A DNA stretch of 51,544 nucleotides, the filler included, from Actinobacteria bacterium UBA7524 (GTDB lineage Bacteria > Actinomycetota > Coriobacteriia > Anaerosomatales > UBA912): the NCBI GenBank assembly GCA_002478275.1. It is 5 parts of 5 records of this genome, joined end to end, with 100 filler letters (N's around TTAATTAATTAA, not from the genome) between each part and the next. Parts side by side here need not be neighbours in the genome. Positions count along the whole stretch, not along the records: positions 1 to 8,651 come from DLMY01000011.1; 4 more parts are not named here. One strand, given 5' to 3'. Positions 210-30,677 of this stretch are shown piece by piece. Made by a program: the position numbers and the translations under genes. Numbering within the stretch: position 1 is the first letter of the stretch; each line of letters begins with the position of its first letter. The notes under the pieces were generated by a model. That model saw nothing but the letters and a program-made list of their open reading frames with translations. It did no database searches and was not told where the DNA came from.

Positions 210-351
210 TGTATTTGGGCAACAAATCGGGGGCAGACAAAGCGTGCCGCCGTGAACCGACTACCGTCCGCGACGACATGCCGTCGCTCAATGGTCGGAC
301 CTAGTGGACGCGTCTGCAACTACGCCCAGGACAATCGCACGGACCGAACGA

Positions 352-1287
352 CTAGAGCGACTTGATGACTTCAATCCCCATCTGCCGGGCCTCGATGCCG
401 AGCATCGATGTGTTCTTCACTGCACTATCAGAGTCGAGCGCAAAGACAGCGTCAACTGAAGCCAGTATCTGCGGCATATCCCAAGGTGGTACAAACGGCT
501 CGACTGGCAGGGCAGTCTCAAGGCGCTCGCTAGCCCACCGGACGAAGTCCGACTCCCCCACGCCTTGACCAACTATCCGCAAGATCGTCTTCGACCTATC
601 CTGCTGCGCGTACCAGTCGACGATCTGGTCCAAACCCTTGCGGCGCCAGTGATGATTGATCTTTCCGATATACGCGAACACCCTCCGACTCTCAAGCACA
701 TCACTACCGCTCTCGGCCTCAAACGCGGATTCGTAGACCTCGTAGATGGGCCGACTTTCTGTTCTCGCACCTGTGTCACGGATGACGTGCTCGTGATATT
801 CGTCCGTGATCACCAACTGGGCGTCATGAAGGACGTCATGCAGAATCGCGCCGTACGCGGGGTGGGCTAGGAACTTCGCGATGTCGCTTCCCCCGTGCCG
901 AACGATGTGCGGCACGCCCGTTAGCTTCGAAGCCAGATGCGCAGCGATCCCGTACGGCACGAGGTAGTCGGACTGAATCTGGTCCCAATCGCCCGATCGC
1001 AACACGAGGAGCAGCTCGTTCAGGAGCCTCTCCAAGTAGTCCTGGCTTTGGGGCACGTGCCACGGGGCTGGGCCGGGAATATCGTGAAGGCGCAGTCCGG
1101 CCTGACGGACGAGCCAATCAAGATGCTCATCGCAGCCTGCGATTCTGTACTGCTGCTCGACACTCCCTGAATTCGTGACGAGCGCCACGTCGTGCCCAGC
1201 ATCTAGCAATCGACGCACATGCCAATAGGTGCGTGCGGCGATCCCACCTTCGATCGGTGGGAACTTGCTAACGATACATACGCGCAC
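352..1287 (-). CDS. glycosyltransferase, GT-B fold (GT4-like)
   Basis: N-terminal VRVCIVSKFPPIEGG, YLVPYG..AHLAS..TGVPHIVRHGGSDI, FAYIGK, and C-terminal IEA..MG. The GTG start at 1287 overlaps the asnB end; the ORF track starts it at 1374. Confidence 0.85.
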   Translation of the reverse strand: MRVCIVSKFPPIEGGIAARTYWHVRRLLDAGHDVALVTNSGSVEQQYRIAGCDEHLDWLVRQAGLRLHDIPGPAPWHVPQSQDYLERLLNELLLVLRSGDWDQIQSDYLVPYGIAAHLASKLTGVPHIVRHGGSDIAKFLAHPAYGAILHDVLHDAQLVITDEYHEHVIRDTGARTESRPIYEVYESAFEAESGSDVLESRRVFAYIGKINHHWRRKGLDQIVDWYAQQDRSKTILRIVGQGVGESDFVRWASERLETALPVEPFVPPWDMPQILASVDAVFALDSDSAVKNTSMLGIEARQMGIEVIKSL

Positions 1288-2995
1288 GGTTGCCGCCTCT
1301 GTAGAACTCCTCGACATCGAAACCCGCCGAGAGTGCACCGCGATTCTCCACGAATACGTAGTGGAAGAGGTCAAACATCACGGCGTCCAACGGTGACTTC
1401 ACGAAACACCGGAATGGATGGGAGGAAAGATCAGCATCCGATACAGCCCGAGAAGCGAAGTCCTCGACCTGCAGCGATATCCGATCCACGGCGGCCGGCA
1501 TCCCGGCCTTCTTCCGATGTAATAGGTGCGTCACGCCATAGCTCTCAAACACCGGCATCGCCGCCTCCCTCAGAACGCGCTTTGTATCCCTCCCGAGCAC
1601 CCTGGCTTCGATCGGAAGCGAAAGTGCCAGATCGACGAGATCGTCGTGCAGATACGCAGGACGAACTTCAAATCCGAATGCGGAGCAAGATCGGTCCACG
1701 CTCCAGAGGTGGTAGTTCGACAGGCCGCCGCGGATCAGAAAGTCGAACAGATTTCGCCGATAGACGGATTCATTCTCCGGTCGCGGGAACAGCGCATTGA
1801 CCTGCTCAACTACCGTATCCGGCGACCCGATGGCCTTAAGTCGTCCACGAATTCGGTCGGAGAACCCGAGCGGGTGCGTGTAGGACCAGTAATAGCCGCC
1901 GAAGAGCTCATCCGCGCCTTCTCCGGAAAATGCCACTCGAACGTGCTCGGATATCTTGCGTGACAGCATCTGGTACGCCATGCCTCCGTGGATGTCGAAC
2001 ACCCCACCGGCCACCACGTTCTCATAGTGCTGCACGAAGACAGGGAGTTCCCGCAGATAGTCGTCGATGGTCACACGGAACTCGTGATGGTCGGCACCCA
2101 CCGCTTTCGCGACCTCACGTGCCGCGTACAGGTCTGGGGTGTCGCCACCGTCCGCAAGGGTGAACGTCACCGGCGAACTCGCCTCCAGCTGGTCCGCAAG
2201 CATCACGAGCAGCGACGAATCGAGACCCCCGGACAGGTAGAACGCCTTGTCCAGCGGATCATGCCGCAGCATCTGGTCGAGTCCGTTTCGCAGGCACCCG
2301 AGCACATCATTCGCGGAGTCGGCACAGGATTCTTCTGCGCCGTCGTATCGCGCTGGCTCTGGCTCCCAGTACCTGTGGACTCGCACTCGCCCCCCGGAGA
2401 TCTCGACCACGGTTCCCGGCGGAACCTGCTTGATGTTGGCAAAGGGGGTTCGATCAGGCGAGCTGATATAGCCGAACACGGCGGTCTCATCCATCGCTTG
2501 TTCGTCGAGGGCGGTTGGCACTCTCTTGTCGGCCAGCACCGCCTTGATCTCCGAGCCAAAGACGACTTCATCACCAACAACACTGTAGAAGAGGGGCTTG
2601 ATCCCGAGTCGGTCGCGAGCCAGCAGGATCCTGCGGCCATCAACTGCGGCAACCGCAAACATCCCGTGAAGTCTCGCAAACCCATGCCAATCCTCGCGGC
2701 GGATGAGTACTTGGATCAGGTGAGACTCCGCGTCAAGCGGGTCGAGACTCAGTGACAGGGTGCGTGAGAGCTCCCGGTAGTTGTATATCTCGCCGTTGAA
2801 GAGGACGACGGGGCTACCTGCTCGAGGCATAGGAGCATCACTTGAGCCGATGATCGCCAAACGGCAGCCGCCCAGGGATGCCTCCAGCTCCGTCCTCACG
2901 TCGAACGAGTCGGGCCCGCGATGACTGATGGAGCCGAGCATCCGGCTGACAAGCGCGGAATCCTCTCGGCCGATTACCCCGCAGATCCCACACAT
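1268..2995 (-). CDS. asnB: asparagine synthase (glutamine-hydrolysing)-like amidotransferase
   Basis: N-terminal MCGICG (Ntn Cys), HRGPD, FNGEIYNY, ARDRLGIKPLFY, LSGGLDSS, SGEGADELFGGY. Confidence 0.92.
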   Translation of the reverse strand: MCGICGVIGREDSALVSRMLGSISHRGPDSFDVRTELEASLGGCRLAIIGSSDAPMPRAGSPVVLFNGEIYNYRELSRTLSLSLDPLDAESHLIQVLIRREDWHGFARLHGMFAVAAVDGRRILLARDRLGIKPLFYSVVGDEVVFGSEIKAVLADKRVPTALDEQAMDETAVFGYISSPDRTPFANIKQVPPGTVVEISGGRVRVHRYWEPEPARYDGAEESCADSANDVLGCLRNGLDQMLRHDPLDKAFYLSGGLDSSLLVMLADQLEASSPVTFTLADGGDTPDLYAAREVAKAVGADHHEFRVTIDDYLRELPVFVQHYENVVAGGVFDIHGGMAYQMLSRKISEHVRVAFSGEGADELFGGYYWSYTHPLGFSDRIRGRLKAIGSPDTVVEQVNALFPRPENESVYRRNLFDFLIRGGLSNYHLWSVDRSCSAFGFEVRPAYLHDDLVDLALSLPIEARVLGRDTKRVLREAAMPVFESYGVTHLLHRKKAGMPAAVDRISLQVEDFASRAVSDADLSSHPFRCFVKSPLDAVMFDLFHYVFVENRGALSAGFDVEEFYRGGNRARMYR

Positions 2996-3771
2996 CACAA
3001 GCCCGCAAGAAACGGAGCTGCTTCTGAGAGCCCCCAGAACGCATACACGGTGCCCTCGTCGATGAAGTGATAGCGCCAGTGCCCTGAGTCCAACTGACTC
3101 CGACTAAGCCAGCGAGCAGCGGGCTCGAGCAGAGAGCAATCGGGAAACACAGCGGACAAGCCAACCAGGCACAGCCCCGTCGCCCAAGGATCGCTGCCCA
3201 CCGGGTGGCCCCTCCAGGGCCCGAACCCACCGTCCGTGTTGACGTTCGCTTCGAGAAAGCCGAGTGTCCTCCGCTCAAGCTCATGGTTACGGCATGGATT
3301 CTGCGCCTGGCACATCAAGTACATCGCGCCTTTGTATGTCAGCGCAACGTCTGCCCGTAGGTCATCGGCCCACATGTCCTCGAGCTTCGTCCAGTCCTCC
3401 GGCAGGCCGAGGTCGCCATGCAATCTGAGCACGAGCCCAGTCGTCGGGACGCGCGCAACATCGCGCCGGCTTCGCCCCCAACCTCCACCCGCTGAACGAT
3501 TCGACCCAATCCAAGCGAGTCCGGCCTGCGAACTCGTCGAGTCGACGGGCAGAGCCGCCGCGCACCACGCGGTCTCCTCAATGTCAGTCCAACCGCCATC
3601 CTCTTGCTGCCGATCCACGACAAGATCGTCGAAGCCCTCAGGTCGTGATCCTGCCAAGACCGCTAGTCTAGCCACCCTCGTGCAGTCAGAGAGACGCTCG
3701 GCCATCCCAGTCGCTCTCCCGTCGAGGGCCAACTGAGCGCGATCAAGCACTGCGCTCACAGAGACTGTCAT
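2995..3771 (-). CDS. prenyltransferase/squalene-oxidase (QW) repeat alpha-alpha toroid protein
   Basis: Four QW-type repeats: QQEDGGW, RSAGGGWG, NTDGGFG, SQLDSGHW. Its start overlaps the upstream stop (ATGA) and its stop overlaps the asnB start (TGATG). Confidence 0.8.
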   Translation of the reverse strand: MTVSVSAVLDRAQLALDGRATGMAERLSDCTRVARLAVLAGSRPEGFDDLVVDRQQEDGGWTDIEETAWCAAALPVDSTSSQAGLAWIGSNRSAGGGWGRSRRDVARVPTTGLVLRLHGDLGLPEDWTKLEDMWADDLRADVALTYKGAMYLMCQAQNPCRNHELERRTLGFLEANVNTDGGFGPWRGHPVGSDPWATGLCLVGLSAVFPDCSLLEPAARWLSRSQLDSGHWRYHFIDEGTVYAFWGLSEAAPFLAGL

Positions 3772-5876
3772 GCTGTCACCGGTCGCATGAGTGGCGCCTG
3801 CCGCTGGCGGAAGATACCGCGCTTCTCATCGTCGGCGAGGATCGAATCGCACTCAGCGCACACGTAGAATATCTGCTCGCAATCGCCGAATACCTCGAAG
3901 CGGAAGGGCATCTCCCATGAATAGTAGTCTCCACAGCAGGAGCACTTGATCTTGCGTGCAATGGGGTCAATGACCAGACCTACGTCGCCGGGCGCAACGA
4001 CCACCAGCGGCGACCCGGCTCCGGCTGACTCTTGCATGTGTCGATTGAGTCGGTTGGCTAGGTCGGCCCGAAGCCCGTGGCTCATCTCCTCGCCGAACTC
4101 AGACAACACGACAAGCACGGCCCGCCCATCGCCGGACGTCCGCACCACATCAGCTGCTGCCTCGATGAACCACAAGATTCCCGGCAGGTATAGATGCCAC
4201 CCCTTGTGCACGACATCTCGACCGGTCTTTTCGGTCGAGTAGTACTCAAAGACGCCGAACTTTGACTTCTTCGCCATGGCACCCAAGTGCAAACAGATGA
4301 CATCGGCATATGAGCCGAGCTTCAGATACTGAGCGGCCACCTCATTGCTCCATTGGGTGTCTGAGGGAATCGCGATGCGGGCGGTCTCGCCAGGGACCGA
4401 AACCTCGATAAGTACGCCGATGCTATCGTATCCATGCCTTTGGGGAAGTTCAGATGCGTCCTTGTGTATGGCCAGCATCGCTTCGACGTTCAACGCCGCA
4501 TCAATCGGTTTCCCGTCTACGTCGTGGAAGGCGACTGGGTCTTTGAAGCCGTCCTTCCCCGGGGTCCTCACGAACGTGTCGCGGAAGACGATCCTGGTCG
4601 TCTCAATTGAGGCGTTCAGTCGCTCGAAGGCCCCGCCCGACAAGAGGGCATCGACCTTTCGGCTCCCAGCCGACTGTCCGCCGCCAACCCGATTCTTCTG
4701 GGCCTCGAGAAGCAGGTTCACGAGCGGTTCGAAATCCACCAGGTGGTCCGGATGATCATGGGTCACGATGACACCCGATACATCCCTGACCCCGAAGCCC
4801 TGAGAGAAGAAGTTCCTCAAGAAGCCGTAACCCGGATCTATCACAATGCCAGCGTCGATGGTCTCACCTGTGGACGTCCCCTCATCGTGGGCTTCAGGGA
4901 CCCGGTATAAGAAGTACCCGCCCCCTTCAGATGTCCCAAGTGCCGGCGTGTAGGAGTTCCAGCGTTGGAGAACGCAGAATCGCCAGCCTGTCTCCGAGTG
5001 ACGTCTCTGTTTGTAGAGCCGTTCGGTTAGAAGTCTCTCGTTGCGGCCAATCACAGCGTCGTAGTAGTGATGCAGCGGCCCATCCGGGGGTTGGGTGATC
5101 AGGCCGGCATTGTTGACCGCCAAGCTGCGCGCCACAACGCAATCATCGCTCAGCACCGCACCAGAGGAACCGTCCGCCAACATGCACTGGAAGTCCTCAC
5201 ATGTCTCGCACTTGGCTGCAAGTTCGCCGGGAGACAAACGCTGATGGGCCGGCAACTCAGAAGCAGAGGGCTTGAGGAAGGCTCGCTGGAGAAAGCGCCG
5301 AAGGGCTCGACTCGCCAAGGGCGGCTCGAGGGCTGCTATGGGACCGCCCAATGGAAGCTGGCCCCCAGCGAGCAGATCCTTCCATTCGCACCAGTGTTCC
5401 CTCACGAAGCGGGGTATGCCCTCGTCGCCCCCCAGTCCGCACAACCCTTCTGCGAGCCTCAATGCAAACGCGTTGACTTCCTCAAGCCCGTCGCAAGCAC
5501 GCCCCTCCTCGAGGAGGTGTTCGAGGTTCTCACTTAGCAGCCGTCGAATCTCGACCTTATGCTCGCGGTTGCTTTCGTCAATGCACAGATCGAGCGCGGC
5601 ATCCTTCAGAGACTGAATCGAGGCCCAGACCAGCTCTTCAGGAAGCTCCAGATTCAAGTAGCGGACGATTGCGGCAGCAGCCATATCGACACAGGCCGCG
5701 TGCTTGCACTTCCTAGTGGTGGCCTCTAGTAGGTCGGCACACGCGGACAGGCCCTTGACCCAATCCAAGATGGTCTGATCGAGCTCTGACCTGTCTTCGC
5801 CGACCCAAACGAGCCTCTGCTCCAGAGTTGTTCCGAGACGCTGAAGCTCATCTACGGCTTGATCTACGCAGGACAT
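3768..5876 (-). CDS. MBL-fold metallo-hydrolase with long helical N-terminal region and C-terminal Cys-rich (Zn-ribbon-like) motif
   Basis: RWNSYTP..GGGYFL, GIVIDPG, THDHPDH (HxHxDH), SDT, CLHLG; C-terminal CSCC...CAEC. GGGGGAGA SD precedes the ATG. Confidence 0.8.
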   Translation of the reverse strand: MSCVDQAVDELQRLGTTLEQRLVWVGEDRSELDQTILDWVKGLSACADLLEATTRKCKHAACVDMAAAAIVRYLNLELPEELVWASIQSLKDAALDLCIDESNREHKVEIRRLLSENLEHLLEEGRACDGLEEVNAFALRLAEGLCGLGGDEGIPRFVREHWCEWKDLLAGGQLPLGGPIAALEPPLASRALRRFLQRAFLKPSASELPAHQRLSPGELAAKCETCEDFQCMLADGSSGAVLSDDCVVARSLAVNNAGLITQPPDGPLHHYYDAVIGRNERLLTERLYKQRRHSETGWRFCVLQRWNSYTPALGTSEGGGYFLYRVPEAHDEGTSTGETIDAGIVIDPGYGFLRNFFSQGFGVRDVSGVIVTHDHPDHLVDFEPLVNLLLEAQKNRVGGGQSAGSRKVDALLSGGAFERLNASIETTRIVFRDTFVRTPGKDGFKDPVAFHDVDGKPIDAALNVEAMLAIHKDASELPQRHGYDSIGVLIEVSVPGETARIAIPSDTQWSNEVAAQYLKLGSYADVICLHLGAMAKKSKFGVFEYYSTEKTGRDVVHKGWHLYLPGILWFIEAAADVVRTSGDGRAVLVVLSEFGEEMSHGLRADLANRLNRHMQESAGAGSPLVVVAPGDVGLVIDPIARKIKCSCCGDYYSWEMPFRFEVFGDCEQIFYVCAECDSILADDEKRGIFRQRQAPLMRPVTA

Positions 5877-7057
5877 GATTCTCCCCCGGTAGTCGTGGGC
5901 TCTGCGCTGATCCTCATGGCTAGCTTAGTCACCTGGAGTCCGTGCCTCTCCGCCTCCACACCAAGAGACTGGAGAGCAATCCCCCTCTTGCGGCCGCAGG
6001 CTGAGTCTCGCCATTCTGGGGTGGGCTTCTCGAGCCTAGCCCCGCCAAGATCGTTGGCGATCCTCGCTTGCATGACGTCAACGCGAGCCTGCTGATACTG
6101 CGTCAACTGCAGGCCCTTGAGTTTGCCCAGCTCCCGCTCGGAGTCCGTGGATCTCTGCAGGTTGAGGAGTGTGTCAGCAGCTTGAACGACCGATGGAACC
6201 CGAAGATATGTATCGAAGAGTCTCCGACAGTCCGGCCATGCGTAGGGATTCAGCGCCAGCTGGCAGAAGTACTGGTCGGAATCGGAATCGCCATTCAAGT
6301 ACTCCGAGACCTGTCTGAACCGTCCAAGTGCATCGATGTGGTCTCTGTCGTGCAAGCTGCCTTGGGCCTTGTTGTACAAAGCAACCAACTCGTGCGGAGA
6401 CACTCCCTCTCCCACCTCATCCTTGATGTGATTCAGGCAGTCGTCAGCAAGGGCGATTGAATGGTGACCGTGATAACACGCCGACGCTTCATTCAAGAAC
6501 AGCCAGCGGAGAATCCGCAGCTGGCCAGCCAGCGCGGTCGTATCACGTCGTTCGGGAACCGGAGCCTCTCGGACTAGCGCAAGCCCCACCTGATCGAGCG
6601 CAGCAGCCGCAGCAGTGCTGGATCGCTTCTGGAGCAGCGCTCGCTCTACCTTCGCGACGAGCAGCTTCGTCCAAAGACCATCGACAACTGGATCCTCTCC
6701 GCAGCCTTCAATCCTCGGATCCTGCTGGAGGGGCTCAAGCACAACGGACTTCAGCAGACGCCTCTCGGTATCACCGTGCGGTTCATGAAACGCAATGCGA
6801 ATACCGGATAGACCGTCTGGCACGTGCAGGCTCGGGTCGACACTGAAGTGCTCCCTCTCCCAAGGGGCGACTGACGTGTCGTCGCAGAGCGTACTGTCGA
6901 TCTTGACCAAGTCGTCAAGGTCGAGGTCCCGGAGTGCCTCGCCGGTAATTGAGCACCATGGCCCGTTGTAGTCCTCTTGGTCCACAGCGACGTCGTAGAG
7001 CAGACAGAAATACTCAAGCGCTCGAAACCTTGGGCTTCGAACGCGAGCGGTGGCCAC
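5864..7057 (-). CDS. hypothetical alpha-helical (TPR-like) protein
   Basis: 397-aa ORF coupled to both neighbours. TPR-like segments include ALYNKAQGSLHDRDHIDALGRFRQV and QAADTLLNLQRSTDSEREL. Confidence 0.65.
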   Translation of the reverse strand: MATARVRSPRFRALEYFCLLYDVAVDQEDYNGPWCSITGEALRDLDLDDLVKIDSTLCDDTSVAPWEREHFSVDPSLHVPDGLSGIRIAFHEPHGDTERRLLKSVVLEPLQQDPRIEGCGEDPVVDGLWTKLLVAKVERALLQKRSSTAAAAALDQVGLALVREAPVPERRDTTALAGQLRILRWLFLNEASACYHGHHSIALADDCLNHIKDEVGEGVSPHELVALYNKAQGSLHDRDHIDALGRFRQVSEYLNGDSDSDQYFCQLALNPYAWPDCRRLFDTYLRVPSVVQAADTLLNLQRSTDSERELGKLKGLQLTQYQQARVDVMQARIANDLGGARLEKPTPEWRDSACGRKRGIALQSLGVEAERHGLQVTKLAMRISAEPTTTGGESCPA

Positions 7058-7065
7058 CGGGGAGC

Positions 7066-7206
7066 CTACCTACACCCGTGGCACGAGGAGCACTGCCGGC
7101 AGGCCAGTTCCTTGTTCACGTTCTCCACGCCTCGCAGTGGGAACCGCATCTTGTCCTGCTTCTTGATCGCCGGCTTCTCGTACGTCTTGGCCTTCTTGGC
7201 AGCCAT
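7066..7206 (-). CDS. 46-aa Cys-rich RiPP precursor peptide (not in ORF track)
   Basis: Hand translation: MAAKKAKTYEKPAIKKQDKMRFPLRGVENVNKELACRQCSSCHGCR*. The ATG is 3 nt after the PqqD stop with AAGGGGG upstream; strongly G/C-ending codons; YxxP-type leader motif. Confidence 0.85.
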   Translation of the reverse strand: MAAKKAKTYEKPAIKKQDKMRFPLRGVENVNKELACRQCSSCHGCR

Positions 7207-7209
7207 GCC

Positions 7210-7473
7210 TTACGCCCCCTTTGTCACGAGTCCTTCGCTTGCACATGTTTCAAGCAACTCCGCGACATCCGCCCTGACGGTGTTCACGTCCGTACCAAAC
7301 TCGTCGGCAAGGCCGAGCACGATCGTCTCGAACTCGGCTCCACTCTCGAGCGCTTCCAGCACGGTGAATGCTGTCCCATTCACCTCGTAGTGCTCACCGC
7401 TCTCCAAATCGAATGCCCAGAACGTCTCGGATGGGCCCCTTCGAAGACGCAGGCCCTGTCTCACACGATACAT
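7210..7473 (-). CDS. PqqD-family RiPP recognition element (RRE)
   Basis: 87 aa; SGEHYEVNGTAFTVLEAL...LADEFGTDVNTVRADVAELLETCASEGLV is the typical PqqD winged-helix pattern. Confidence 0.9.
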   Translation of the reverse strand: MYRVRQGLRLRRGPSETFWAFDLESGEHYEVNGTAFTVLEALESGAEFETIVLGLADEFGTDVNTVRADVAELLETCASEGLVTKGA

Positions 7474-8489
7474 TCAACCGGCCTCCAACAATGCGGATCG
7501 GGACCAAAACAGTCGCCCGAAGCGAAGTGCGCCATCGCTCGGCATCCACGACAGACAGCAATCAGATCGCACTTGGCGCAGTCCGCCAGGTTCTCTGGGT
7601 CCCGAATCCTCCAGAGGAGATCCGAGTCGTACCATATCTTGAAGAGCCCGTCTCGCAGCACATGTCCGAGCGAAATCGGCAATCGTCGGCAAGGGTAGAC
7701 AGTCCCATCGTGCATGATGGTGAGTGCGTTGGTTCCCACGGAGCACATCGCCCCGACCGTCGGATCATCCTTATCGACAAGGGCGAAGAGCGGGCGGTAC
7801 ATCAAGACCCTGACGCGGCGTTCCGCCACACCGAGAGCGTGGACCGTCTCGAAGACCTCTCGCGCCTCTTCGGGTGTCAGCATGGCATCGTGAAGTTCTG
7901 CCCCCGAGCCCTCAGGGATGAACCGCTCGACAGCGAAGGTGTCAACTTGATGGTCAGCGAGCACATCGAGCATCTGTGGGATCGAGCCCTTGTTCCGCCT
8001 CGTGACGGTCATCATGACCGCGACCTCCATGCCCTGGGACTTGAGGCGGTCTATCGCCGCAAGCGTTCGCTCGAAGGTGCCGTCGCCCCGGATCGAGTCG
8101 TTGAGAACGGCTGATGGGCCTTCGAGCGAGAGCTGGACACGTCGGAGCTTCGTCGCGGCGCGCATGCGCGCAACGTCTTCATCCGAAATGAGGGCTCCAT
8201 TGGTCAAGATGTCGTAGTAGCCCACGACATGACTGAGGTCGAGCATGCTCATCAGCGCGAACAACTCTTCGCGCCTCGTGAATGGCTCGCCACCCGTGAG
8301 GGAGAATGAGCCGACGCGATTCCACACGCTGAGCGCCCTCTCCATTTCGCCGAAGGCGGCTTGAAGGTCGCTCAGGGTCAGCTCTTCCGATGAGGAGTAC
8401 GACGCGTGGTAGCAGTGGGCGCAGCGCTGGTTGCAGCGTTCAGTCAGGTGCCACTGAAAGTAGAACTCATCCCCTGCCGGAATCTCCAA
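7461..8489 (-). CDS. radical SAM/SPASM domain peptide maturase
   Basis: QWHLTERCNQRCAHC (CxxxCxxC), LTGGEP, SPASM C..GTVYPC..CAKCDLIAVCRGCRA..C; TTG start with GGAG SD. Confidence 0.93.
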   Translation of the reverse strand: MEIPAGDEFYFQWHLTERCNQRCAHCYHASYSSSEELTLSDLQAAFGEMERALSVWNRVGSFSLTGGEPFTRREELFALMSMLDLSHVVGYYDILTNGALISDEDVARMRAATKLRRVQLSLEGPSAVLNDSIRGDGTFERTLAAIDRLKSQGMEVAVMMTVTRRNKGSIPQMLDVLADHQVDTFAVERFIPEGSGAELHDAMLTPEEAREVFETVHALGVAERRVRVLMYRPLFALVDKDDPTVGAMCSVGTNALTIMHDGTVYPCRRLPISLGHVLRDGLFKIWYDSDLLWRIRDPENLADCAKCDLIAVCRGCRAMAHFASGDCFGPDPHCWRPVECIV

Positions 8490-8526: not shown

Positions 8527-8629
8527 CATTTCGCTATCACTGCGCGCGCGCCCAAGGGCCAAGAGCAGGCAATCGGCGATCTTCGGCGGTCGGAATCGGC
8601 GATCCCATTTCATGAAGAATACAGCGAAA

Positions 8630-8651
8630 GGCCATGTCCCGTCAAGTGGTG
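8630..8651. mobile_element. IS terminal inverted repeat fragment (IS256-like end), right copy
   Basis: GGCCATGTCCCGTCAAGTGGTG at the contig end, inverted relative to 1-22. Confidence 0.55.
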
Positions 8652-8707: not shown

Positions 8708-10023
8708 NNNNNNNNNNNNNNNNNNNNNNNNNNNNNNNNNNNNNNNNNNNNTTTAGAGTCCGGGAGTCAGACTATGTGGGCTAAGCTGTGTAGTCGAGAG
8801 GGAAACAGCCCAGACCGCCCGCTAAGGTCCCTAAATCCATGCTAAGTGGCAAAGGATGTGCGTTTGCTCAGACAACCAGGATGTTGGCTTANNNNNNNNN
8901 NNNNNNNNNNNNNNNNNNNNNNNNNNNNNNNNNNNNNNNNNNNNNNNNNNNNNNNNNNNNNNNNNNNNNNNNNNNNNNNNNNNNNNNNNNNNNNNNNNNN
9001 NNNNNNNNNNNNNNNNNNNNNNNNNNNNNNNNNNNNNNNNNNNNNNNNNNNNNNNNNNNNNNNNNNNNNNNNNNNNNNNNNNAGCTCACTGGTCAAGTGG
9101 ACATGCGCCGATAATTCACGGGGCTCAAGCATGGTACCGAAGCGGCGGACTTCACTATGTGGAGTGGTAGGGGAGCATTCTGTACGGGTCGAAGTCGGCG
9201 GGTGACCGTCGGTGGACTGTACAGAAGAGAGAATGCTGGCATGAGTAACGAGAGAAACGCGAGAAACGTTTCCGCCGTAAGCCTAAGGGTTCCTGGGCAA
9301 CGCTAATCGTCCCAGGGTCAGTCGGGAGCTAAGGCGAGGCCGACAGGCGTAGTCGATGCACAACAGGTGGACATTCCTGTACCACCGATAGCGCGTTATC
9401 ACCGATGGGGTGACGGAGAAGGGTAGCTGGGCCGGGCGTTGGTTGTCCCGGTTTAAGGCTGTAGGGCGTGAGATAGGTAAATCCGTCTCACATGAAGCCT
9501 GAGAGCTGATGACGAGTCGAATGCGGCGAAGTCAGTGATCCCATGCTTTCAAGAAAAACCTCTAGGGAGTTCTATCGGTGCCCGTACCCCAAACCGACAC
9601 AGGTAGGCAGGTAGAGAATACCAAGGCGATCGAGATAACTATGGTTAAGGAACTCGGCAAAATTGCTCCGTAACTTCGGGAGAAGGAGCGCCTCGGCCCG
9701 TGACTATCTTCGCGGTAAGAGCGGACTGAGGCCGCAGTGAAACGGCCCAAGCGACNNNNNNNNNNNNNNNNNNNNNNNNNNNNNNNNNNNNNNNNNNNNN
9801 NNNNNNNNNNNNNNNNNNNNNNNNNNNNNNNNNNNNNNNNNNNNNNNNNNNNNNNNNNNNNNNNNNNNNNNNNNNNNNNNNNNNNNNNNNNNNNNNNNNN
9901 NNNNNNNNNNNNNNNNNNNNNNNNNNNNNNNNNNNNNNNNNNNNNNNNNNNNNNNNNNNNNNNNNNNNNNNNNNNNNNNNNNNNNNNNNNNNNNNNNNNN
10001 ACGGCGGCCGTAACTATAACGGT

Positions 10024-10775
10024 TATTCTGCTACCGGAATGGCCGTTACAAAACCCGGCTATATGCTGGAACACCTGAGTATCCCACGCTACCTCCCAAG
10101 CATGTCAGACCCGTTCTGTATGCTTGACATGGTGAAAATGCGATGGGTGCAGGCAATCAGCAGGAAAGGCCGGTGGGCGCATATGCGACTTCGTCGTGAG
10201 TTGACGCCTGATTACATCTCCGGATTCGTGGACGGTGAAGGATGCTTCTGTGTGAGTATCCGTCGACATCCAAGCGCACCGCACGGTTGGTTCATGCAAC
10301 CGACGTTTCAGGTATACCAGCACGAATGCAACGCTGGGATTCTTGAAGGGCTGCGGGAGTACTTCGGGTGCGGACGCCTGTCCCACAAAGGTCCGAACAG
10401 CTCAGTCATGACGTATTCGATCTACGCGAGGCGTGACCTCGTTGGACGGATCGTTCCATTCTTCGACGAGCACCCGCTCGTCTCGGAGAAGCAAAGAGAC
10501 TTCGAGCGGTTCAGAGAGGTGCTACTGCGTTTGGTTCGCAAGGAGCATCTGGACCCGGAAGGATTCGACGAGATGGTCAGGATCGCGTTCGAGATGAACG
10601 CTCACGGCAAACAGCGCAAATATCGATTGGATGATGTGCTCATCGGAATCCTCAGAGACTGCACGCCGGGCGCGTCACGTAGTGACGTAAAGATACAGTC
10701 CGAGCCCCATGGCGACATGGGGAGCTGGACAGAAATGATCCAGCCGGCGCTTCTATAGCGCTAGTAACAATACTG
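10024..10775 (+). mobile_element. group I intron in 23S rRNA after U1923 (E. coli numbering)
   Basis: Splits ...ATAACGGT^CCTAAGGTAG...; the 5' exon ends in U and the intron ends in G. P1 TAACGGT/GCCGTTA has a U-G pair; P3 CCCGGC/GCCGGG; P TGCTGGAA, Q AATCAGCAGG, R TCAGAGACTGCA, S AAGATACAGTCC. Confidence 0.95.
10183..10758 (+). CDS. single-motif LAGLIDADG homing endonuclease, I-CeuI-like
   Basis: YISGFVDGEGCF motif, PTFQVYQH, YFGCGRLSHK, IVPFFDEHPL; lies inside the intron. Start uncertain (frame open from 10039). Confidence 0.9.
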   Translation: MRLRRELTPDYISGFVDGEGCFCVSIRRHPSAPHGWFMQPTFQVYQHECNAGILEGLREYFGCGRLSHKGPNSSVMTYSIYARRDLVGRIVPFFDEHPLVSEKQRDFERFREVLLRLVRKEHLDPEGFDEMVRIAFEMNAHGKQRKYRLDDVLIGILRDCTPGASRSDVKIQSEPHGDMGSWTEMIQPALL

Positions 10776-11220
10776 CCTAAGGTAGCGAAATTCCTTGNNN
10801 NNNNNNNNNNNNNNNNNNNNNNNNNNNNNNNNNNNNNNNNNNNNNNNNNNNNNNNNNNNNNNNNNNNNNNNNNNNNNNNNNNNNNNNNNNNNNNNNNNNN
10901 NNNNNNNNNNNNNNNNNNNNNNNNNNNNNNNNNNNNNNNNNNNNNNNNNNNNNNNNNNNNNNNNNNNNNNNNNNNNNNNNNNNNNNNNNNNNNNNNNNNN
11001 NNNNNNNNNNNNNNNNNNNNNNNNNNNNNNNGTAGGACGGAAAGACCCCGTGAACCTTTACTACAGCTTGACATTGGTCACTGGTTTGTCGTGTAGAGGA
11101 TAGGTGGGAGGCTTTGAAGCTGGGGCGCCAGCCCTGGTGGAGCCAACCTTGGAATACCACCCTCGTCAGATTGGTGATCTAACCCCGCGCCGTGAATCCG
11201 GGCGGGGGACCGTGTCAGGT

Positions 11221-11252
<32 letters not shown>

Positions 11253-11403
11253 ATGTAACGGAGGCGCGCGTAAGGTCCGCTCAGAACGGTTGGCAATCGT
11301 TCGTAGAGTGCAAGAGCATAAGCGGGCTTGACTGCGAGACCTACAAGTCGAGCAGATAGGAAACTAGGCTCTAGTGATCCGGCGGCTCAGAGTGGAATGG
11401 CCG

Positions 11404-11442
<39 letters not shown>

Positions 11443-11664
11443 NNNNNNNNNNNNNNNNNNNNNNNNNNNNNNNNNNNNNNNNNNNNNNNNNNNNNNNNNN
11501 NNNNNNNNNNNNNNNNNNNNNNNNNNNNNNNNNNNNNNNNNNNNNNNNNNNNNNNNNNNNNNNNNNNNNNNNNNNNNNNNNNNNNNNNNNNNNNNNNNNN
11601 NNNNNNNNNNNNNNNNNNNNNNNNNNNNNNNNNNNNNNNNNNNNNNNNNNNNNNNNNNNNNNNN

Positions 11665-11719
<55 letters not shown>

Positions 11720-11720
11720 T

Positions 11721-11752
<32 letters not shown>

Positions 11753-11779
11753 CCGTGGGCGTAAGAGACTTGAGAGAGG

Positions 11780-11852
<73 letters not shown>

Positions 11853-11869
11853 TTAGCTACGTTCGGTAT

Positions 11870-11902
<33 letters not shown>

Positions 11903-12136
11903 AGTCTCAAGATGAGGTCTCTCACTGGGTTAACCAGGTAAGGCCCCTCGTAGACTACGAGGTTGATAGGCTGCAGGTGTACGCACAGCGATGTGTTCAG
12001 CCGAGCAGTACTAATAGGCCGAGGTCTTGATCTCATTTGCGAGATCTTCAAGCGCTATGCAGCTCTCAGGGTGCGGATGCACTCTAGAGGCTCATTTGAC
12101 AACGGGATATAACCGTTCACCGAGAGCCGGTGGATG

Positions 12137-12254
12137 TGTTCAGTGGTTATGGCGGAGGGGGTACACCCGATCCCATTCCGAACTCGGCAGTTAAGTCCTC
12201 CAGCGCCGATGGTACTGCGGCGTAGGCCGTGGGAGAGTAGGACGCCGCTGAACA
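12137..12254 (+). rRNA. rrf: 5S rRNA
   Basis: CACCCGATCCCATTCCGAACTCGG..GTTAAG..GCGCCGATGGTACTG..GGGAGAGTAGG; flanked by a long inverted processing stem AGAGCCGGTGGATG/CATCCACCGGCTCT. Confidence 0.96.
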
Positions 12255-12953: not shown

Positions 12954-15409
12954 ATGCCCGAGGCCGCACGCAAGACACAGTACTCCCGCGCCATCGACGA
13001 GATTCTGACGCCGAATTCACTCAAGGTGCTTCAGAAGCGCTACTTGCTCAAGGACGCGGAGGGTAATGCGTGCGAGAACCCCAGTGACATGTTCATCCGC
13101 GTCGCGGAGAACATCGCAGGCGCCGAGGCGCTGTTCGGCAACGAGTCAGGTGTGGCGGAGTCGGCGGCGGACTTCTACGACCTGATGACCTCGCTCGAGT
13201 TCTTGCCCAACTCGCCCACACTCATGAACGCCGGCCGCGATCTTCAGCAGCTCTCGGCGTGCTTCGTCCTGCCGGTCGAGGACTCGATGGAGTCCATCTT
13301 CGGAGCCGTGCGCGACACTGCGCTGATCCACAAGTCAGGTGGCGGGACGGGATTCTCATTCTCCCGTCTACGTCCCAGCGGTGATGCGGTGCGCTCCACC
13401 CAGGGTGTGAGTAGCGGTCCGGTGTCGTTCATGCGCGTGTTCAACCAGGCGACCGAGGCGGTCAAGCAAGGCGGTACGCGCCGTGGAGCCAACATGGGTG
13501 TCTTGCGTATCGATCACCCGGACATCCTTCACTTCATCAAGTGCAAGGAGTCAGGCGATTTCTCGAACTTCAACATCTCGGTCGCGCTGACCGAAGCGTT
13601 CATGCAGGCAGTGAAGTCCGGTGACATGTACGACCTGGTCAACCCTCATACCAAAGAGGTCGCCGGCCAGCTCGATGCGCGCGAGGTCTACGATCTCATC
13701 ATCGATATGGCGTGGGCGACGGGTGATCCCGGCATCATCTTCATCGACCGCATGAACCGNNNNNNNNNNNNNNNNNNNNNNNNNNNNNNNNNNNNNNNNN
13801 NNNNNNNNNNNNNNNNNNNNNNNNNNNNNNNNNNNNNNNNNNNNNNNNNNNNNNNNNNNNNNNNNNNNNNNNNNNNNNNNNNNNNNNNNNNNNNNNNNNN
13901 NNNNNNNNNNNNATCTTCATCGACCGCATGAACCGCGACAACCCCACACCCGCGATCGGTGAGATCGAGTCGACGAACCCCTGCGGCGAGCAGCCGCTGC
14001 TTCCGTACGAGGCGTGCAACCTGGGCAGCGTCAACCTGGCGAAGTTCGTCACCGTGCGCGAGGGTGGTCCGGACGTGGACTGGGACCGTCTGGGTGACGT
14101 GGTGCACCGCGCCGTGCGATTCCTCGACAATGTGATCGAAGTCAACGAATACCCGCTGCCCGAGATCGGCGAGTTGGCGCGCGGTAACCGCAAGATCGGT
14201 CTTGGCGTGATGGGCTGGGCTGACATGCTCATCAAGATGGGTATCGCGTACGACTCCGACGCAGCGGTCGCGCTCGGCGAGAAGGTCATGGGCTACATCG
14301 ACGCCGAGGCCAAGGCCGCATCGGCCAAACTCGCCGCGGAACGAGGCACCTTCCCGAACTTCACAGGCTCGATCTACGACACGCCCGACCATGGACCGAT
14401 GCGAAACGCGACCGTCACGACCATCGCGCCGACCGGTACGCTCTCCATCATCGCGAACTGCTCGAGCGGCGTGGAGCCTCTGTTCGCAGTGAGTTACGTG
14501 CGGACGGTCATGGACAACGACCGCCTCGTCGAGGTCAACCCCATCTTCGAAGAGTTCGCTGTCAAGCGCGGGTTCTACTCGTCGGAGCTCATGGCGCTCA
14601 TCGCCGACCACGGCTCGGTCAAGGGTGTCGACGACGTGCCCGAGGACATCCAGGCCCTCTTCGTCACCGCGCACGATATCGCGCCGGAATGGCACATCAG
14701 GATGCAGGCGGCGTTCCAGAAGCACACTGACAACGCGGTTTCCAAGACGGTCAACTTCGCCAACGAGGCGACTGCTGAAGACGTGAGGCACGTCTACGAC
14801 CTCGCCTACGAGGCGGGCGTCAAGGGTGTGACCATCTATCGCGACGGTTCCAAGTCGGGACAGGTGCTCACGACCGGCAAGTCGGGCAAGGTCTCCTCGG
14901 AAGGGGAGGTCATCGGTCGGCCGGGCGAGATCGAGCCCAGGCCTCGTCCGCTGGTGACCCAGGGACGCACCGAGAAGATACTCACCGGTTGCGGCAACCT
15001 CTACGTCACGGTGAACTGGGACGAGCAGGGTATGTGCGAGGTGTTCACGCAGATGGGCAAGTCCGGCGGTTGCGCGTCGAGCCAATCGGAGGCGCTGTCG
15101 CGGATGATCTCGGTCTCGCTGCGTGCGGGGGTCGATCCGGACGCGATCCTGAAGCACCTGCGTGGCATACGGTGCCCGAGCCCGAGCTGGACGGAGGGCG
15201 GCAAGGTGCTCTCGTGCGCCGACGCGGTCGGTATCGTGATGGAGCACGCGCTGACGTACATGGAGACGGGCGAGGCTGGTCGGGGCGTGACGAAGTCCTC
15301 GGAGAAGCTCGACTATCTGTCGGGCGCCTGTCCGGAGTGCGGCGGCTCGCTCGAGCACGAGAGTGGCTGTGCGGTATGCCGTGCGTGCGGCTACAGCAAG
15401 TGCGCGTGA
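12954..15409 (+). CDS. nrdJ: class II (adenosylcobalamin-dependent) ribonucleotide reductase; apparent split is an assembly gap
   Basis: [56 protein letters not shown]-terminal Zn ribbon. The sequence on both sides of the N gap overlaps (ATCTTCATCGACCGCATGAACCG). Confidence 0.95.
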
Positions 15410-30600: not shown

Positions 30601-30677
30601 AGGCCAGTAGCTCCAATTGGTAGAGCGCCGGTCTCCAAAACCGGATGTTGGGGGTTCGAGTCCCTCCTGGCCTGCCA
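30601..30677 (+). tRNA. tRNA-Trp(CCA)
   Basis: Cloverleaf with AGGCCAG/CTGGCCT acceptor, anticodon arm CCGGT-CTCCAAA-ACCGG, GGTTCGAG, encoded CCA. Confidence 0.96.

Follow-up and report, generated by a model that had tools for sequence, protein, structure and literature searches.

A short Cys/His-tailed peptide family encoded beside radical SAM/SPASM and PqqD-family genes, with stand-alone copies in viral and cellular genomes

Peptide maturation by radical SAM (rSAM)/SPASM enzymes together with an RRE is known from several systems. The precursor of PQQ is modified at a Glu/Tyr pair, and mycofactocin combines an invariant core at the C-terminus of its precursor with an RRE, a SPASM rSAM enzyme, and a glycosyltransferase encoded in the same cluster. 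The maturase CrpC is described as installing ranthionine links (PMC13692751), and the leaders of actinobacterial lasso peptides are documented to carry a YxxPxL motif (PMC6784204).

The window analysed here, a stretch of 51,544 nucleotides from the genome of Actinobacteria bacterium UBA7524 (GCA_002478275.1), carries on its minus strand an operon in the order rSAM/SPASM enzyme, PqqD-family protein, peptide, 397-aa protein, 702-aa MBL-fold protein, 258-aa protein, AsnB-type amidotransferase, and GT4-family glycosyltransferase:

8616..8645, minus strand: promoter-like site upstream of the rSAM gene, by consensus match only
7461..8489, minus strand: radical SAM/SPASM enzyme, 342 aa (Pfam Radical_SAM and SPASM)
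7210..7473, minus strand: PqqD-family protein, 87 aa, presumed RRE/peptide chaperone (Pfam PqqD, 41.7 bits, cutoff 23.4)
7066..7206, minus strand: probable precursor peptide, 46 aa (translation, homologues, profile, synonymous divergence)
5864..7057, minus strand: helical-repeat protein, 397 aa, N-terminal part of the ~1050-aa F2, variable module (neighbour clustering, AF2)
3768..5876, minus strand: 702-aa protein, C-terminal part of F2, variable module (metallo-beta-lactamase motif)
2995..3771, minus strand: F3 alpha/alpha-toroid protein, 258 aa, QxxDGGW repeats, variable module (alignment, AF2, Foldseek)
1268..2998, minus strand: AsnB-type glutamine-dependent amidotransferase (TIGR01536, 273 bits, cutoff 267.1)
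352..1374, minus strand: GT4-family glycosyltransferase, last gene of the cassette (Pfam; conserved in cassettes)

The rSAM protein carries CNxRCxHC and seven SPASM Cys, all kept in 15/15 aligned orthologues (invariant Cys 19, 23, 26, 249, 267, 304, 307, 313, 316, and 334). The PqqD HMM detects a match in every rSAM-bearing locus except L041, and the two proteins are fused in L033. The AF2 model of the 397-aa protein is helical with a pLDDT of 70 and has no Foldseek match at E<0.001, its top rows being TPR proteins. The 702-aa protein has an intact HxHxDH at 373–378 and a C-terminal CxxC...C with invariant C645, C648, and C673, and a profile of its MBL domain matches the PDB through the generic HxHxDH motif only. 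An assembly frameshift as the origin of the 397/702 split was considered and rejected, since an independent contig with 11 SNPs spans the junction gap-free and F2 is split likewise in L003. F3 was modelled with a pLDDT of 94.6; its best Foldseek match is drimenyl diphosphate synthase (E 3e-8, TMq 0.72), and its best structural matches comprise class II terpene cyclases, complement thioester domains, and farnesyltransferase beta, so that the predicted fold is of the terpene-cyclase/prenyltransferase-beta/thioester-domain type. Sequence searches against the PDB returned nothing for the 258-aa and 397-aa proteins. The AsnB homologue keeps the N-terminal Cys (MCGICG) and a PP-loop (SGGLDS). The window cassette shows neither a leader peptidase nor an exporter, and no protease family was matched in it.

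The ACGX system (TIGR04340) is the best-scoring curated family for the window rSAM and its orthologues, with full-length alignment, but the scores of 177–197 bits (196.6 for the window enzyme, its best NCBIfam match) lie below the cutoff of 400, and the window peptide is without ACGX repeats. All top family matches of the rSAM are peptide or cofactor maturases, and the curated models SbtM, MftC, PqqE, PapB, and others all fall below their cutoffs, the SbtM model of the thio(seleno)oxazole Sbt system reaching 138–154 against 350. The PQQ operon likewise unites a small precursor with invariant modified residues, a PqqD chaperone, a SPASM rSAM, and an MBL-fold protein; the PqqE and PqqD models, however, score only 75.7 against 381.35 and 25.2 against 46, the window cassette adds AsnB, GT4, and the toroid protein, its MBL domain is generic, and its core is Cys-rich rather than built around a Glu/Tyr pair. 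Mycofactocin resembles the locus in the invariant core at the extreme C-terminus, the RRE and SPASM rSAM, and the glycosyltransferase in the cluster, but differs in its core chemistry, in the MftC score (144.7 against 265), and in a peptidase and a dehydrogenase that the window cassette does not have.

Ranthipeptides/SCIFF and the CrpC–CrpA pair share with the locus a Cys-rich C-terminal region and a three-cluster SPASM rSAM. In contrast, the PapB and ScfB-related models reach 80.9 against 340 and 62 against 855 on the L027 orthologue, CrpC is a member of TIGR04463, and the window peptide holds four Cys at i+3 within an 11-residue tail, whereas SCIFF has a six-Cys pattern and Crp has repeats. 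The sequence-only reading had already set the peptide apart from SCIFF and ACGX, a distinction upheld by the spacing of the four Cys, the lack of ACGX, and the absence of any NCBIfam model match. The likeness to lasso systems lies in the YxxP-type leader motif (PMC6784204), in a lasso-type chaperone as the best NCBIfam match of PqqD (lasso_PqqD_Strm), and in an Asn-synthetase homologue. The chaperone match, however, scores 40.8 against a cutoff of 70 and the lasso cyclase model 109.5 against 525 on the window AsnB, which keeps its Cys nucleophile and passes the true AsnB cutoff; moreover, the window cassette is without a B2 protease and includes an rSAM enzyme.

A hidden gene for a 46-aa peptide with YEKPAI in its leader, four evenly spaced Cys, and a length that nearly fills the gap behind PqqD had been proposed from the sequence, and each of these points was confirmed. 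Translation of 7066–7206 on the minus strand yields exactly the 46 residues quoted, with YEKPAI at residues 9–14 and Cys at positions 36, 39, 42, and 45. The leader bears Y9-x-x-P12 and M20-x-F22, and the core is C36-R-Q-C-S-S-C-H-G-C-R46. The operon is tight: the PqqD stop (7210–7212) is separated by 3 nt from the peptide ATG (7206–7204), the peptide stop lies at 7066–7068, and the ORF ends 8 nt before the downstream GTG at 7057. A Shine-Dalgarno-like G-rich run (7215–7219) stands 8–12 nt ahead of the ATG. Compared with the closest relative, L001, the peptide gene differs at 18 of 141 nt, and all changed codons are synonymous (16/16). The exact CRQCSSCHGCR followed by a stop occurs at 66 loci in 58 distinct nucleotide versions, which use both Ser codon families, six of the six Arg codons, and all three stops. 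The synonymous-only changes, the many DNA versions of the core, and the 261 clusters described below place the ORF far beyond chance, and by these sequence criteria the 46-codon ORF is a real gene.

A word-indexed search recovered 17 homologues of 45–76 aa, and Y9, P12, M20, F22, and the entire C-terminal CRQCSSCHGCR are common to 17/17. A profile built from 52 sequences and searched against 1.84 billion representatives detected 261 clusters at 50% identity with E<=1e-3, including 158 at E<=1e-10. In the best 150 clusters the core consensus is C-[RK]-Q-C-S-[SGTAN]-C-H-[GSNA]-C-[RK], CxxCxxCxxCx forms the exact C-terminal end in 143, and the distance to the core is 25–29 residues from Y..P (mode 27) and 14–18 residues from M.F (mode 16). 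In the profile alignment Y9 and P12 are invariant and M20 and F22 are conserved in at least 90%. Leader motifs held at fixed distances in this way fit the pattern that recognition by an RRE would predict. The archaeal cassettes (Thermoplasmatota, Bathyarchaeia, Methanophagales, and Methanoperedens) have the core variant C-[LV]-Q. The family is unannotated: the window peptide matched no family among the Pfam, NCBIfam, PADLOC, and PHROGs models, its members are named “hypothetical protein” or, wrongly, “EzrA” in public records, and searches for the core string or its substrings, as well as keyword searches of the literature, retrieved no paper on it. With the low-complexity filter on, tblastn gave no match for the window peptide and one viral copy in GenBank phage records, nor for the window peptide in plasmids. 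The peptide and its neighbours represent a precursor family without a curated model and a cassette of eight genes, spread over more than 10 bacterial phyla and several archaeal lineages. While rSAM/SPASM and RRE peptide maturation is itself known, the ecology of this family is unusual, and its core is conserved at a level otherwise seen in cofactor precursors such as PqqA and MftA.

The linkage of the peptide to rSAM and PqqD was examined from both sides, the absence of a conserved short ORF beside related rSAM/PqqD genes having been named beforehand as grounds for abandoning the proposal. From the peptide side, one genome per species was kept, giving 44 peptide loci in which cassette genes were sought by tblastn and HMM. 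The cassette is present at 25/44; at 24 of these loci rSAM and/or PqqD lies directly upstream of the peptide, and L019 begins at the peptide with the downstream genes present. Of the other 19 loci, four have <600 nt upstream and cannot be judged, and 15 have at least 2 kb upstream and no cassette gene. From the rSAM side, the best 80 of 97 rSAM relatives were kept, and at 66 loci the downstream flank measured 600 nt or more. A short reading frame with CxxCxxCxxC at its end is found in 59/66 of these orthologue loci, 55 times downstream (317–692 nt past the rSAM match) and four times ~1 kb upstream, and the seven loci without it belong to the most distant enzymes, all at most 42% identical to the window rSAM. 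Among five cassette genomes searched, four contain one peptide copy each, and the fifth has a core variant outside the pattern. Some CPR genomes, such as Levybacteria L098, also hold the full rSAM/peptide pair. Neither search refuted the proposal; the peptide gene is real, has a family of homologues, and shows linkage to the rSAM and PqqD genes. The predicted complex of PqqD and peptide scored 0.49 with one control at 0.33, so the score is not specific.

The two-way linkage and the fixed leader motifs support the reading of the peptide as the rSAM substrate, and two features of RRE-dependent precursors are seen here, namely a short ORF beside an RRE/PqqD and an enzyme across taxa and a leader motif at a fixed distance. 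We consider it probable that the peptide is a translated RiPP-type precursor and the substrate of the upstream PqqD and rSAM/SPASM proteins. PqqD would dock the leader through Y-x-x-P and M-x-F, ~27 and ~16 residues ahead of the core, and present the eleven C-terminal residues, C-[RK]-Q-C-S-x-C-H-x-C-[RK], to the rSAM/SPASM enzyme with its three clusters. This enzyme would most likely form Cys-derived crosslinks, and by analogy with SPASM maturases of Cys-rich substrates such as CrpC, the simplest guess is thioethers to Q38, S40, or H43. Since the core has neither Asp nor Glu and is kept at the end of the chain, its sole carboxylate is the C-terminal alpha-carboxylate, which may be the target of the AsnB-type amidotransferase, and the remaining cassette genes (GT4, the alpha/alpha-toroid protein, and the large MBL or HD hydrolase) may then tailor or handle the product. 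Several observations count against the substrate reading: a constant core behind a variable leader is more the mark of cofactor precursors than of antibiotics, lone copies occur without rSAM/PqqD nearby, and neither a leader peptidase nor an exporter can be recognised in the window cassette.

The first of these observations leads to a cofactor similar to PQQ or mycofactocin, in which the leader would be a scaffold and the C-terminal residues would be crosslinked, excised, and amidated or glycosylated into a redox- or metal-active molecule. The invariance of the core over bacteria, archaea, and phages, while the rest of the peptide varies, speaks for such a product, as do the parallels of peptide, PqqD, SPASM rSAM, and MBL-fold protein with PqqA/D/E/B, of the glycosyltransferase with mycofactocin tailoring, and the appearance of the MftC and PqqE models among the rSAM matches. 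However, the PQQ and mycofactocin models all score far under their cutoffs, the MBL domain matches through its motif with no PqqB-specific similarity, no dependent oxidoreductase was seen in the cassette, and phages or tiny genomes with a lone copy could not make a cofactor by themselves. Weighing both sides, we regard a cofactor as unlikely.

At peptide loci the general cassette order is rSAM/SPASM, PqqD, peptide, large hydrolase, alpha/alpha-toroid protein, AsnB-type amidotransferase, and GT4, and neighbour clustering resolved two architectures. Type A, found in the window, Actinomycetota, Desulfobacterota, Chloroflexota, Calditrichota, and Syntrophorhabdus, has the order rSAM, PqqD, peptide, a DNA methylase in three loci, F2, F3, AsnB, and GT4; its F2 is ~1050 aa long and is divided into 397 and 702 aa in the window and L003. 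Type B, found in Syntrophaceae, Ignavibacteriales, Bacteroidales, Desulfobacteraceae, and Acididesulfobacter, continues past the peptide with F3, GT4, a second rSAM, a P-loop kinase, a PHP phosphoesterase, an HD protein, and AsnB; the ~900-aa HD protein resembles a dGTPase, its score with the dGTPase model of PADLOC being 180 bits. In the window, PADLOC models gave only generic viperin-like rSAM matches, and the MTase_II models match the methylase inserted in cassettes. ABC exporter genes adjoin the peptide or the cassette at L044:3856-5879, L016:574-4219, and L032:5974-7776, assigned by Pfam (ABC_membrane and ABC_tran) in L016 and L032 and by clustering with these in L044, where the exporter ORF overlaps the peptide stop.

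Between the window and L001 the peptide is 100% identical, rSAM 86%, PqqD 79%, AsnB 78%, and GT4 79%, whereas F2 and F3 are only 34–35% and 44% identical. DNA homology between the window and L001 covers 7073–8488 and 349–3080, ending at the peptide stop and at the rSAM start codon. A second, more abundant contig from one metagenome is ~86% identical over 7073–7500 and then unlike just past the peptide stop. To judge from these alignments, the hydrolase/toroid middle of F2 and F3 (window 3080–7073) is a module exchanged between strains, and the homology boundaries and the diverging contig indicate that the cassette is a discrete unit in differing contexts. These contexts include an apparently truncated 23S rRNA in the window, which lies beyond 8651 in the part from another record, and, in L001, a gene for a type IV secretion coupling protein. 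The latter, a T4SS-DNA_transf coupling-protein gene at L001:5047-6219, adjoins the cassette and hints at a mobile element. The cassette of L033 belongs to a Desulfovibrio sp. genome that may be from an isolate, which may make the system amenable to experiment.

A scan of viral contigs detected 27 contigs or loci carrying the peptide, and rSAM, PqqD, F2, F3, and GT4 are absent from 27/27. In 11 of the 18 phage loci examined, the peptide lies at most three genes from terminase, portal, or head genes. When leaders were compared with the core excluded, the viral leader of L055 was 93% identical to that of a deltaproteobacterial cassette peptide, L059 reached 78%, and L058 and L070 reached 70% with cassette leaders. 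Altogether 13/28 viral leaders exceed the 90th percentile (0.56) of cassette–cassette pairs, the median of which is 0.37, and rare leader variants are matched in viruses too (L067 with L111, L065b with the archaeal type). DNA homology between viral and cellular loci is confined to the peptide ORF and, in few cases, the neighbouring phrog_17560-type gene, at 67–94% identity; recent wholesale transfer of flanks between viral and cellular loci was not seen. Given this confinement at 67–94%, the phage copies are genes that have been maintained and not recent debris. That phages have repeatedly taken up the substrate gene by itself is unusual among RiPP-type systems and raises the question whether a host enzyme matures the phage peptide and to whose benefit.

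Several genes recur beside the lone copies. In several phage and prophage loci, a ~110-aa phrog_17560 protein with a “DGWHR” motif lies directly 3' of the lone peptide (L042:8120-8458, L035:8349-8696, L074:6158-6490, and L070:6844-7179 and 4391-4726); these copies are 61–73% identical, and searches of Pfam and the PDB gave no match for the phrog_17560-like neighbour. Also recurrent beside the phage peptide is a class I SAM methyltransferase, Methyltransf_11/25 (L053:12-620, L062:4101-4763, L064:3888-5777, and L066), forming the C-terminal part of a portal fusion in L064 and adjoining a GT1-type glycosyltransferase in L062. On a 316-kb viral contig (L065:5200-6352), two adjacent peptide copies, one with extra Cys and the other with an archaeal-type leader, directly follow a 262-aa AsnB-like ORF.

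The swapped module and the viral copies bear on another alternative, in which the cassette would be an anti-phage conflict system, the modified peptide a signal or labile safeguard, and the hydrolase a swappable effector, subverted by phages with host-matched precursors. The large hydrolase does differ by type, MBL in type A and the dGTPase-like HD protein in type B; a DNA methylase is inserted in three loci; F2 and F3 are 34–44% identical while the flanking genes are 78–100% identical, with breakpoints at 7073 and 3080; a co-occurring strain diverges directly past the peptide stop; all 27 viral loci carry the peptide alone; and nearly half of the viral leaders (13/28) are nearer to a cassette leader than nine-tenths of cassette–cassette pairs are to each other. 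On the other hand, the cassette in its entirety fits no system model of PADLOC, AsnB and GT4 also suit ordinary natural-product tailoring, and the phage copies keep the identical core, and hence the same product, rather than being dead decoys. We consider an anti-phage system of this kind improbable. A broader and speculative scheme, to which we assign a low probability, is that the Cys/His-tail peptide is the central currency of phage–host conflict, with the cassette maturing it and coupling it to swappable MBL/HD effectors, and with phages and some episymbionts capturing only the host-matched precursor, in phages within head/packaging modules, to feed, jam, or exploit the pathway.

Stand-alone copies also occur in cellular genomes. 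At the 15 genome loci with at least 2 kb upstream, the peptide is present with no cassette gene nearby:

Patescibacteria: L025, L028, L031, L036, and L044
Pacearchaeota: L026, L029 (two tandem copies), and L037, each adjoining a divergent TrmB gene
Another archaeon: L032
Others: Muribaculaceae L015, Planctomycetota L021, Stahlbacteria L035, Elusimicrobiota L039, a Bacillota prophage L042, and L038

PqqD and F3 were not found in five orphan-bearing CPR/DPANN genomes, which may be incomplete, while as a positive control the F3 profile found 5/5 cassette genomes. Of the same five genomes, one has no rSAM match, two have weak matches only (E>=1.8e-8), and two encode a 31%-identical rSAM/SPASM protein 55–75 kb away from the peptide. 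With the 15 genome and 27 viral loci alone and the enzymes missing or weak in the five genomes, the peptide can evidently persist without its presumed maturase. Such orphan copies are rare, and among 401 Patescibacteria genomes searched the core pattern was found in the query genome only. Small P-loop NTPases/kinases adjoin orphan peptides in CPR, DPANN, and Elusimicrobiota (L029:8289-8861, L039:3775-4320, L044:3207-3803, and L025:9112-9657), and another lies near a type B cassette (L027:4006-4491). The L025 protein matches the HMM of the type B cassette kinase with an E of 9e-71; a role as a peptide or nucleotide kinase partner is possible.

The lone copies in phages, CPR, and DPANN, which retain the core and the leader motifs without nearby enzymes, can also be read as an unmodified metal-binding mini-protein, whose four Cys and His would bind Zn or Fe-S and which rSAM and PqqD would merely use or load. 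The CxxCxxC spacing is like that of cluster-binding motifs, and CSSCH fits CXXCH. Haem peptides of the c-type cytochrome kind combine CXXCH with an export signal; in the window peptide CSSCH is present, but the N-terminus is short and basic, without a hydrophobic segment, and the signal peptide that attachment of c-type haem would need is lacking. A free metal binder is further opposed by the near-obligate linkage to PqqD and rSAM from the rSAM side (59/66 loci), by leader motifs at fixed spacing as in RRE-dependent precursors, and by the rarity of orphans, with the query genome alone among the 401 Patescibacteria. We hold this reading to be distinctly improbable. A spurious ORF within the GC-rich intergenic gap, which the short length below gene-caller cutoffs and the overlapping antisense ORFs might suggest, is refuted with near certainty by synonymous-only divergence, hundreds of homologues, and a conserved position.

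With the RiPP-type precursor retained as the preferred reading of the cassette, the rest of the window calls for brief description. On the plus strand, pieces of 23S rRNA occur at 8812–9165, 9241–10139, and 11019–12022, followed by 5S rRNA at 12139–12253, and the ORFs earlier read in this stretch are rRNA. Model position 1029 is the first that the 23S match covers, and the match sets in ~320 nt from the start codon of the rSAM gene on the other side of the record junction, which indicates either truncation of the rRNA gene or a joint in the assembly. At the break of the 23S match between model positions 2043 and 2047 sits a LAGLIDADG endonuclease ORF (10039–10758), an intron-like arrangement. 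A ribonucleotide reductase on the plus strand is read as overlapping ORFs at 12954–13931 and 13928–15409, the second ending in a TSCPD domain, which could be a split gene or a frameshift. One tRNA gene was detected by Rfam at 30601–30674 on the plus strand.
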